A stretch of 5,719 nucleotides of DNA from a virus (taxonomy: Duplodnaviria > Heunggongvirae > Uroviricota > Caudoviricetes). Positions 2,333 to 3,730 of this stretch are shown here, in pieces. The stretch lies in the IMG/VR virus record IMGVR_UViG_3300029498_000035; one strand, 5' to 3'. The translations under genes were made by a program, and so were the position numbers. The notes beneath the pieces are model-generated. The model did not search any database, was not told the origin of the DNA, and saw only the letters and a program-made list of their open reading frames with translations. The number at the start of each line of letters is the position of its first letter. The stretch's first letter is position 1.

Positions 2333-3382
2333 TCAAACGATTAAATCCTGAACTTCCCTGACTGTCTGCTCAAAACGTCCGGTCTCCAGCTCAACACCAA
2401 TCGCACGACGCCCCAGTGCCATCGCCGCTTTTACCGTTGAACCCGACCCCATGAAAAAATCCGCAACCAGATCACCAGGACGACTACTTGCGCTGATTAT
2501 CTGCTGCAGCATTTCTGCCGGTTTTTCGCACGGATGTTTCCCTGGATAGTACTGCACCGGTTTATACGTCCACACATCGGTGTACGGCACCTGCACCGTC
2601 ACACCGAAATACCTCCGCAAATTTTTATATTCACTCAGCAGTTCCGTATACTGCCGGTTCAGCTCACTGTATGTGCTGACCAGTTGGTAATGGGACTTTT
2701 CCAGTTCTCCCCGCTGATGTTTCTCTTCTGCCACCCGGGCAAACAGCGACTGTAATTTCAGATAATCGCTTTCGTTCGGTAGCTGCCACTGACTGGCACT
2801 GAACCAGTGCGACACCATGTTTTTCTTTCCTGTGGCATCTGCAATCTGTTTTGCCGTTATCCCCAGGGCCGCGCGCGCATCACGAAAGTAAGAAATCAGC
2901 GGGGCCATCACATGCTGTTTCAGTGCACTGCCCTTCGCCGCATACCCGGCATCTTTCGGACGATACGGCCCCTGATAATGTTCCGCGAACAGAATGCGCT
3001 CTGTGGCGGGGAAATACGCCCGCAGGCTTTCCTTGTTGCATCCGTTCCAGCGTCCGGACGGCTTCGCCCAGATAATATGGTTCAGCACACTGAAGCGTTC
3101 ACGCATCATGATTTCGATATCAGATGCCAGGCGATGACCACAGAACAGGTAAAGACTTCCGGCAGGTTTCAGCACCCGCCAGAACTGCGCCAGACACTGG
3201 TCCAGCCACTTCAGGTAATCATCGTCGCCCTTCCACTGGTTATCCCAGCCCTCAGGCTTCACTTTAAAGTACGGCGGGTCCGTGACTATCAGGTCAACAG
3301 AATTTTCGGGTAACGACCGGATAAATTCCAGGCAGTCGGCGTTGATTAACTCACAACTGGATATTTTTACAGTATTAAGCAT
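2333..3382 (-). CDS. orphan DNA amino-methyltransferase, beta class (N6-adenine or N4-cytosine), phage-type
   Basis: ORF of 349 aa. Motif IV DPPY (LIVTDPPYF) is near the N-terminus and the AdoMet-binding motif I FxGSGST (DFFMGSGSTVKAA) near the C-terminus, which is the beta-class permutation. No restriction-endonuclease-like partner is in the window. The start ATG 3382..3380 has only a weak SD. Confidence 0.9.
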   Translation of the reverse strand: MLNTVKISSCELINADCLEFIRSLPENSVDLIVTDPPYFKVKPEGWDNQWKGDDDYLKWLDQCLAQFWRVLKPAGSLYLFCGHRLASDIEIMMRERFSVLNHIIWAKPSGRWNGCNKESLRAYFPATERILFAEHYQGPYRPKDAGYAAKGSALKQHVMAPLISYFRDARAALGITAKQIADATGKKNMVSHWFSASQWQLPNESDYLKLQSLFARVAEEKHQRGELEKSHYQLVSTYSELNRQYTELLSEYKNLRRYFGVTVQVPYTDVWTYKPVQYYPGKHPCEKPAEMLQQIISASSRPGDLVADFFMGSGSTVKAAMALGRRAIGVELETGRFEQTVREVQDLIV

Positions 3383-3475
3383 GGATCATTAAGCCTGTCT
3401 CTGATAGGCTCATTCTGCTTTTGCGCAAAGCAGTGGGCCTGAGGTTTGCTTGTGAACCCAACGCATGAGCAGATG

Positions 3476-3504
3476 GCTGGTGGGTGCCCCTAACACCCAC
3501 CAGC
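3476..3504. repeat. perfect 11-bp inverted repeat carrying Chi octamers on both strands
   Basis: gctggtgggtg (3476-3486), spacer cccctaa, cacccaccagc (3494-3504). GCTGGTGG lies on plus at 3476-3483 and its complement ccaccagc at 3497-3504. No U-tract follows on either strand, so it is not a terminator. It lies between the small HTH ORF and the methyltransferase. Confidence 0.55.
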
Positions 3505-3520
3505 CGCCCATTTACCACAA

Positions 3521-3546
3521 ATAAAAAAGCCTTCACTGCGGAAGGC
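3521..3546 (-). terminator. intrinsic terminator downstream of the small HTH ORF
   Basis: gccttc-actgcg-gaaggc (3529-3546) is a 6-bp stem. The plus A-tract 3523-3528 gives UUUUUUAUUUG after the hairpin on the minus RNA. The ORF stop TGA (3533-3535) lies inside the stem. Confidence 0.6.
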
Positions 3547-3730
3547 GTCTGTAACAACCGAACTGATAGTCTGCCAGACCCGCCATAACCAGCTGGGTCA
3601 GTATTAACTGGCAGCGTTCGCGTGAAAGGTAAGTATTCTGCGCTATCTCCCCGACTGTCGCCGGTTCGGTAACGCTTAATTCATTAAACACCACTCTGGC
3701 GGTTTCTGTCATATCCTGCTGTTTTAGCAT
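3533..3730 (-). CDS. small winged-helix DNA-binding protein, possibly PapI/FaeA-like
   Basis: ORF-track ORF 3533..3817 begins with GTG. I prefer the internal ATG 3730..3728, which is preceded by AAGGGA 7 nt upstream, giving 65 aa. The HTH-like core TVGEIAQNTYLSRERCQLILTQLVMAGL resembles PapI/FaeA-type regulators as recalled; not searched. Confidence 0.45.
   Translation of the reverse strand: MLKQQDMTETARVVFNELSVTEPATVGEIAQNTYLSRERCQLILTQLVMAGLADYQFGCYRRLPQ

Follow-up and report, generated by a model that had tools for sequence, protein, structure and literature searches.

The adenine methyltransferase M.EcoGII methylates adenine in any context, in RNA as well as in DNA; its constitutive expression sickens cells, and the methylome of a lysogen shows no signal (PMC5778455). 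In the searched text of the paper that describes the enzyme, the silence of the native gene is not explained and prophage induction is offered only as a guess (PMC5778455). In phage Mu, and in Mu-like phages where non-specific adenine methylases replace mom, translation of the toxic modification gene is controlled by Com, a small protein encoded upstream (PMC3299994). Here we analyze a 5,719-nt stretch of phage DNA (the window; IMG/VR record IMGVR_UViG_3300029498_000035), the early-late junction of a lambdoid prophage, which carries, with all relevant genes on the minus strand, an M.EcoGII-type methyltransferase (methylase) gene preceded by a 65-residue winged-helix gene and, between the two, a folded leader RNA. 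The enzyme and the gene layout are already known; the conserved three-helix leader and the conserved winged-helix neighbour are new here, and together they are a plausible gating device for a toxic phage methylase.

The methylase and its leader RNA

The motif order of the methylase is that of the beta class (DPPY at residues 35-38 and FMGSGS at residues 310-315). Its sequence is 96% identical end to end to that of M.EcoGII in the supplement of PMC11551740. The comparison sequence is machine-read; it agrees with the window enzyme at 337 of 350 aligned positions, and misreading seems to account for some of the differences. Identity to the enzyme of phage 1720a-02, named as a close relative of M.EcoGII by Murray et al. 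(PMC5778455), is 94%. These comparisons establish the enzyme, as far as its sequence can, as an M.EcoGII orthologue and hence of an already characterized type; because M.EcoGII is non-specific, it would not be a sequence-specific epigenetic regulator. A first-pass annotation of this DNA had called it an orphan beta-class methyltransferase. The class stands, and neither the list of open reading frames (ORFs) nor a near-identical genome shows a restriction gene beside it, but the enzyme is not an unfamiliar one. The weak Shine-Dalgarno (SD) sequence noted in the same annotation is also as described: the nearest purine run to the methylase ATG is an AGG 11 nt upstream, and no purine-rich run lies within 10 nt. 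Across the loci compared, SD-like purines occur only 11-12 nt upstream of the ATG, as AGG in E. coli and as AAAAAGG elsewhere.

Two palindromes had been recognized between the small gene and the methylase. The first, reported as a perfect 11-bp inverted repeat at 3476-3504, is present and perfect but measures 12 bp, with 100% complementary arms at 3475-3486 and 3494-3505 around a 7-nt loop; by our own estimate, which is not a tool output, about 0.002 such repeats would be expected by chance in a 700-bp region. The second, the 7-bp hairpin CTGCTTT/AAAGCAG (3415-3421 and 3427-3433), lies in the methylase leader as stated. Both are stems of a conserved folded leader RNA that has no Rfam family. 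A 164-nt leader stretch folds at -64.2 kcal/mol, compared with -48.4 +/- 4.2 kcal/mol for shuffled sequences (z = -3.8), and the leader proper, of about 140 nt and three helices, is conserved from E. coli to Proteus and Plesiomonas. The 12-bp repeat forms the upper stem of helix P1, and the second hairpin forms the tip of P3. Helix P2 is a long-range pairing of GGTCAC-AAG (3449-3457) with CTT-nn-TGATC (3384-3393), found by RNAalifold and present also in the single-sequence minimum-energy fold, and its 3' strand occupies the usual SD site.

Support for this structure comes from the way in which its sequence varies. The arms of the 12-bp repeat differ by lineage while their complementarity is kept (GGCTGGTGGGTG/CACCCACCAGCC, GACTGTAAAAGTG/CACCTTTACAGTC and GACAGTGAGGATG/CATCCCCGCTGTC). 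A MAFFT alignment of the leader contained register errors in P1 and P3, and the sequences were therefore realigned by a covariance model. In the resulting training alignment of 35 sequences, 95.3% of cells pair, compared with 23-47% when the partners are slid, and nine pairs show double changes. Of 80 independent IMG/VR loci searched with the same model, 53 have the leader immediately 5' of the methylase ATG, and four further matches are offset by no more than about 130 nt. In the model-fitted alignment of this viral set, 89.4% of cells pair (27-45% when slid), compensatory changes are found in 24 of 34 pairs, including all nine pairs of upper P1 and seven of the eight in P2, and covariation scores 0.445, compared with 0.076 at most. 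G-U pairs are more numerous than A-C pairs (97:39 and 103:12), which places the structure on the sense-strand RNA. Stems that change their sequence, keep their pairing and use G-U pairs thus indicate a sense-strand RNA structure rather than a fixed DNA operator, and an RNA structure overlapping the methylase start region is established by these alignments.

The junction nucleotides of the leader are highly conserved (AAUGGGC, GAACC-AAGGCCCA and AGCCUAUCA). P1 is the most persistent part: it is kept in nearly all loci, including those whose leader is otherwise replaced, and its apical loop is similar with or without the winged-helix gene. Rfam 15 yielded no minus-strand match in the window at E<=1 and no leader match in seven diverse loci. 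An expectation that the leader would outdo coding DNA in conservation did not hold: compared with the window copy, its identity (0.52-0.72) is similar to that of coding DNA, and exceeds that of third-codon positions (0.38-0.64) in most comparisons. An alternative, switch-like pairing of ATGGGC with GCCCAC, spotted by eye, was dropped for lack of support.

The winged-helix gene and conservation of the cassette

The small ORF differs from its phiP27 counterpart by nine synonymous and no non-synonymous changes, its ratio of non-synonymous to synonymous substitution rates against the Salmonella and Enterobacter copies is 0.03-0.14, and its exact sequence is found on at least 1000 contigs. This substitution pattern marks it as a real gene under strong purifying selection. 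AlphaFold2 predicts a canonical winged helix in which residues 4-17, 26-32 and 37-49 are helical and residues 53-62 form a beta-hairpin (predicted local distance difference test score, 86 on average). The first-pass annotation had described a helix-turn-helix (HTH) protein with a PapI/FaeA-like core; the predicted fold agrees with the winged-helix part of that description, but the PapI/FaeA likeness finds no match in Pfam, PDB or Foldseek. The Pfam search that had been recommended returned no match to FaeA (PF04703) at E<=1 and none to HTH_3, only sub-threshold hits to TrmB, MarR_2, DprA_WH and HTH_24; NCBIfam gave no match, and PapI chains were absent from a PDB sequence search at E<=10 and from the top 50 Foldseek hits. 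In PHROGs the protein falls in phrog_331. Its fold matches are generic winged helices, all with E>1e-3, and include IclR and MarR DNA binders, SelB domains that bind selenocysteine insertion sequence (SECIS) RNA, viral Z-alpha-like domains, and the non-DNA-binding dimerisation domains of the small-molecule methyltransferases RedM, DsyB and PigF. A Z-alpha reading was rejected on the Pfam, PDB sequence and fold searches, the key motifs being absent.

The small gene is followed by its own terminator (3546-3519), as had been annotated, with the TGA stop codon inside the terminator loop. The strength of this terminator differs by lineage: it is high in that of E. coli and low in other Enterobacteriaceae, and Proteus and Providencia lack the terminator. 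On the 5' side, an element of the form CTTGCTG-N12-13-CAGAGTTAYNTGTRTGTCA is found 25-45 nt upstream of every type-A small gene and is conserved in primary sequence. It occurs only with type-A winged-helix genes, and is missing where the small gene is missing or of a distant type; in most aligned species loci, it and the small gene come after a terminator, the counterpart of the tR'-like terminator of the window. A consensus RNA fold was looked for in the element and the small-gene 5' region (3755-3792 in the window) and none was found, nor does the element contain a good sigma-70 -10 hexamer or a clear promoter match. Sigma-54, sigma-E, DnaA-box, IHF and CII-type readings were considered by eye and none fits. 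The element may be the small gene's own promoter or operator.

A linkage scan that started from the small protein, with one genome per species, gave 34 loci, and in 32 of them a methylase homologue lies directly 3' of the small gene across a spacer of 134-153 nt (about 150 nt in the window). The species range of the pair extends from E. coli to Proteus, Providencia, Mangrovibacter, Mixta and Plesiomonas. The gene upstream of the pair varies among these loci, so the small gene and the methylase move as a unit between different Q modules. When the scan started from the methylase, the small gene was present in 74 of 74 close viral loci. The proposal that the small ORF, the hairpin region and the methylase belong together is thus confirmed, and the conservation of the cassette is established. 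A first viral scan with the methylase alignment returned near-identical E. coli copies only; putting the Plesiomonas sequence first gave a diverse set. Among the 80 more distant viral loci, 39 have the leader and the small gene, 18 the leader only, 11 the small gene with P1 only, and 12 neither.

Several of these 12 loci have a different conserved structured leader together with small ORFs that resemble more distant winged-helix relatives. In a sister clade of methylases (L125, L129, L138, L178, L182, L189, L194 and L196), a leader of the form GCCTTGAGTAC...GTATTCAAGGC surrounds a long GC hairpin about 175 nt before the methylase start, with the small ORFs ahead of it. One locus from an Enterobacteriaceae genome (L020, 4169-4305) seems to be a cassette in decay: the winged-helix gene is truncated, the leader RNA is kept (103 bits), and an IraM-like gene follows in place of the lost methylase.

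The order Q, small ORF, methylase and tRNAs is found in 287 phage records, mostly of Stx2a, Stx2c and Stx2d phages, and also in phiP27, where L23 and L24 are followed by the tRNAs and stx2e. The same layout occurs in 3396 of 5426 complete E. coli genomes, and the two genes between Q and stx2e are mentioned in passing in PMC9729726. The position is therefore not an undescribed one, as had been supposed. The accompanying remark that in Stx phages the methylase sits before Q concerns a different enzyme; a Dam-type gene lies upstream of Q in the same prophage.

Setting of the cassette in the late operon

The coordinates of the features are collected in Table 1. The order is Q, the pR'-like promoter, the terminator, the small gene, the methylase, the tRNAs and then the lysis genes; in the closest genome, E. 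coli MS 85-1 (99.8% identity), holin, lysozyme and lysis genes come next. The placement of the cassette in the first-pass annotation, between tR' and the tRNAs, is correct: it lies between a tR'-like terminator that follows a lambda-like late promoter and two tRNA genes. The sequence 3' of the pR'-like -10 hexamer is TGCTCT-AACGATGGG, including AACGAT at 3917-3912 (minus strand). As a whole, TTGATT-N16-TAAATT-TGCTCT-AACGATGGG (3905-3951) appears closely similar to lambda pR' and its pause element. This putative promoter, at 3924-3951, is absent from the promoter-scan list. A short transcript of about 65 nt would arise in lysogens between the pR'-like promoter and the terminator at 3859-3874; StxS has a comparable origin (PMC7547250).

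Table 1. Features of the window in order of transcription; all are on the minus strand, and positions refer to the whole window
Feature	Position	Sequence or composition	Remarks
DUF968-type gene			First in order of transcription in the window
RusA gene	4775-5149		
Q antiterminator gene	3957-4778	273 aa	PF03589, E=2e-49
Late promoter, pR'-like	3924-3951	-35 TTGATT (3951-3946), 16-nt spacer including TGG, -10 TAAATT (3929-3924)	Read by eye
Intrinsic terminator, tR'-like	3853-3874	CCCGCC-GCCT-GGCGGG then TTTTTTAT	Hairpin 3874-3859; terminator scan
Conserved element	3755-3792	CTTGCTG-N12-CAAGAGTTATTGGTGTGTCAC	5' region of winged-helix gene; locus alignment
Winged-helix protein gene	3533-3730	65 aa, ATG start, isoelectric point (pI) 5.1	phrog_331, function not assigned
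Intrinsic terminator over small-gene stop codon	3519-3546	GCCTTC-CGCAGT-GAAGGC then TTTTTTATTT	Terminator scan
Leader helix P1	3465-3511	Lower stem ATGGGC/GCTCAT, upper stem 12-bp repeat	4-nt asymmetric internal loop between the stems
Leader helix P2, 5' strand	3449-3457	GTTCA-C-AAG	GGTCACAAG in most species
Leader helix P3	3407-3439	GGCCCAC...ATGAGCC	Tip is the second hairpin, 3415-3433
Leader helix P2, 3' strand	3384-3393	CTT-AA-TGATC	-11 to -2 before the methylase ATG
Beta-class N6-adenine methyltransferase gene, M.EcoGII-type	2333-3382	349 aa	PF01555 (N6_N4_Mtase), E=3.5e-44
tRNA, Met/Ile2	2208-2283	CAU anticodon	Downstream border of cassette
tRNA, Arg	2122-2198	UCG anticodon	Downstream border of cassette

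Beyond the tRNAs, the minus strand carries a 38-aa ORF with a DUF3927 family annotation (1946-2062) and three tandem copies of the prophage small RNA STnc100 (RF02076; 1200-1388, 1453-1628 and 1664-1857). Two of the copies are strong matches (132.5 and 138.8 bits), and the other, at 30 bits, is degenerate and falls below threshold. The three copies occupy the slot where Stx phages carry stx, and a 2026 preprint relates the PasD small RNAs to STnc100. A 111-aa ORF on the plus strand (839-1174), in an AT-rich island, is labelled anti-adapter protein IraM by RefSeq in a near-identical genome; it has no Pfam match and looks like cargo in the stx-equivalent slot. The DUF1737 gene (390-593, minus strand) is an intact 67-aa ORF in the window (PF08410, E=1e-16) despite its RefSeq label of pseudogene fragment.

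Gating of the methylase, rival readings and known systems

We favour, with moderate confidence, a model, analogous to Mu com-mom, in which this locus is an anti-restriction cassette of the late operon and its toxic methylase is gated post-transcriptionally. The cassette would be an accessory one at the start of the lambdoid late operon, just after pR'-tR', and would supply an M.EcoGII-type promiscuous adenine methylase that presumably shields progeny DNA from restriction. Because the enzyme harms the cell, its expression would be gated at two levels. At the first, transcription would have to pass tR' and, in E. coli, also the small gene's own terminator, for which Q antitermination would be needed; the enzyme would then be made only late in lytic growth, which fits its published silence and toxicity. 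At the second, P2 of the leader would pair the nucleotides just before an AUG that lacks a functional SD, so that translation would be low by default. The winged-helix protein may be a co-inherited partner that either lifts this translational block, in the way that Com lifts that of mom, or has the methylase protein as its target. In this model, the uncatalogued folded leader probably keeps the toxic enzyme off until the phage goes lytic.

Several points weigh against the gating model or parts of it. Translational repression, the trigger of its relief and the role of the winged-helix protein are what we infer, in the case of P2 from its geometry. Fitting the covariation alignments to the model biases them towards the structure. 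The window's own P2 contains one U-U mismatch, and an 8-bp hairpin specific to the E. coli lineage (3392-3410, AGCCTATCAGAGACAGGCT, minus strand) competes with P2 and P3; gating in this lineage may therefore be leakier, or switchable. Eighteen of the 57 leader-bearing viral loci have no recognisable winged-helix gene within 1.5 kb, so the leader is not strictly dependent on that protein, and the 11 winged-helix loci without a full leader retain P1 alone. The winged-helix family is mostly acidic (pI 4.6-5.6) and distant phrog_331 members have a Glu-rich third, putative recognition, helix (AVEFIIEQM), which makes nucleic-acid binding by the small protein doubtful. Its acidity and the leader-only loci together weaken the Com-like form of the model. 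Finally, the conserved element, itself preceded by a terminator, suggests that the small gene may be expressed on its own, from a separate promoter.

In a rival reading, the small protein binds the methylase directly, as an inhibitor (a 'safety catch'), a chaperone or a targeting factor, in an arrangement resembling an antitoxin and its toxin and with the leader acting independently. The gene order, with the small acidic protein first and the toxic basic enzyme (pI 8.4) second, is consistent with such a partnership, as are the acidic helix 3 of the distant homologues and the presence of the RedM, DsyB and PigF dimerisation domains among the best fold matches. Those matches are generic, however, none reaching E of 1e-3 or below, and a 150-nt structured spacer with a terminator between the genes is unlike toxin-antitoxin operons. 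We regard this complete alternative as possible, though unlikely on balance; as an account of the winged-helix protein taken by itself, a methylase-binding or independent role is at least as likely as the Com-like model. We advance only tentatively, and do not expect to hold in full, the strongest form of the latter, in which M.EcoGII translation is gated by the leader as a cis-regulatory RNA switch of a new class and the phrog_331 protein is the dedicated trans effector of that switch, a convergent, non-zinc-finger analogue of Com.

The loci with a leader and no small gene also bear on two readings in which the leader acts without the winged-helix protein. The methylase ErmC acts on its own mRNA in negative feedback, and the leader could likewise be an autoregulatory operator bound or methylated by the methylase itself, with the winged-helix role separate. 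The leader tracks the methylase more faithfully than the small gene does, with 18 leader-only loci and P1 in nearly all, the P1 apical loop is alike with or without the winged-helix gene, and M.EcoGII acts on RNA as well as on DNA (PMC5778455). The enzyme is nevertheless described as non-specific, with no sign of preference for any structure, and we consider autoregulation doubtful. The second reading makes the leader a processing or stability element, with P1 as an RNase III site that splits the cistrons or remodels the start region and no dedicated trans factor. The shape of P1, an 18-bp stem with an asymmetric internal loop, would suit such a role, as it seems similar to the RNase III sites of T7 and the lambda N leader; P1 also survives replacement of P2 and P3, and the leader occurs without the small gene. 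Processing by itself would leave the conserved three-helix junction and the long-range P2 pairing unexplained, and we think this reading improbable.

The model of the first-pass annotation, in which methylase transcription is set, perhaps as an epigenetic switch, by a small PapI- or C-protein-like regulator with the palindromes as its DNA sites, fares worse. The winged-helix fold, the IclR- and MarR-type DNA binders among the fold matches and the conserved element upstream of the small gene, which could be an operator, are compatible with it. The DNA-binding reading of the palindromes is, however, largely refuted: the stems keep their pairing, not their sequence, and use G-U pairs. A phase-variable switch of the PapI/Dam kind finds a single GATC in 3383-3960, itself part of RNA helix P2, and there is no FaeA, PapI or HTH_3 signal. 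A controller-protein arrangement is contradicted by the absence of an Xre-type HTH and of a restriction gene, and by palindromes that lie downstream. The minus-strand scan found no promoter-like site between the small gene and the methylase; a sigma-70 promoter considered in this spacer was rejected for that reason and because its candidate -10 is not conserved. The small protein is also acidic, and we regard this model as very improbable. Least probable of all is a riboswitch whose three-helix junction binds a small molecule such as S-adenosylmethionine or S-adenosylhomocysteine and ties methylase translation to cofactor supply, since the conserved junction nucleotides, the occluded start region and the SAM-dependent product that would suit it are met by no match to a known riboswitch class in Rfam and no pointer to a ligand.

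The question has practical weight, as M.EcoGII is in wide laboratory use as a reagent that marks DNA and RNA. Over half of complete E. coli genomes contain the cassette, and in most Stx2 phages the Shiga toxin genes come immediately downstream of it, so any control of read-through or processing at this point concerns the same late transcript as the toxin genes. If true, the gating model would show how temperate phages safely deploy a self-harming anti-restriction enzyme; in its strongest form, an RNA switch would be acting in thousands of enterobacterial prophages, including Stx phages.

Comparison with the known systems places the locus as follows. With M.EcoGII/M.EcoGI of E. coli O104:H4 C227-11 (PMC5778455) the window enzyme shares the 349-aa length, the termini and 96% identity, as well as the beta-class motif order and the prophage location; M.EcoGII is silent in lysogens. 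The window allele has about 10 substitutions and its activity is assigned by homology, and neither the small gene nor the leader RNA is described in the searched text of that paper. The gene order between Q and the tRNAs or stx is identical to that of L23/L24 in phiP27 and of the corresponding pairs in Stx2a, Stx2c and Stx2e phages. The L23 and L24 proteins are 100 and 89% identical, respectively, to their window counterparts, and the window prophage has STnc100 copies and the IraM-like gene in place of stx. A small HTH-type protein near a methyltransferase is also a feature of the PapI/FaeA systems, but those proteins work together with Lrp on paired GATC sites in a phase-variable operon, whereas here there is one GATC (3383-3960), no sequence match and a phage late operon. 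The same feature is shared with the C-proteins of restriction-modification systems, which belong to a different fold class and act in systems with an endonuclease gene, of which there is none here. Their palindromic C-boxes are conserved in sequence and lie upstream of the C gene, whereas the window palindromes lie downstream, undergo compensatory changes and are RNA helices.

The Mu com-mom system and the Com/methylase pairs of Mu-like prophages (hin1523, nma1821 and hia5; PMC3299994) offer the closest functional parallel, with several differences. Com is a four-cysteine zinc finger, whereas the window protein is an acidic winged helix with only two cysteines, C40 and C59. Mu has a single stem-loop and overlapping genes, compared with three helices and a spacer of about 150 nt here, and the host phage is lambdoid rather than Mu-like. 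Binding and activation of the leader RNA by the small protein is putative, by analogy with Com, and the acidity of the protein argues against it. The systems have three things in common: a small gene immediately precedes, in what would be one late transcript, a toxic gene whose product modifies adenine with broad specificity; RNA structure covers the start region of the enzyme gene (here P2, at -11 to -2 and supported by covariation); and the presumed purpose is anti-restriction. The cassette may therefore be a second, independently evolved version of the com-mom solution.

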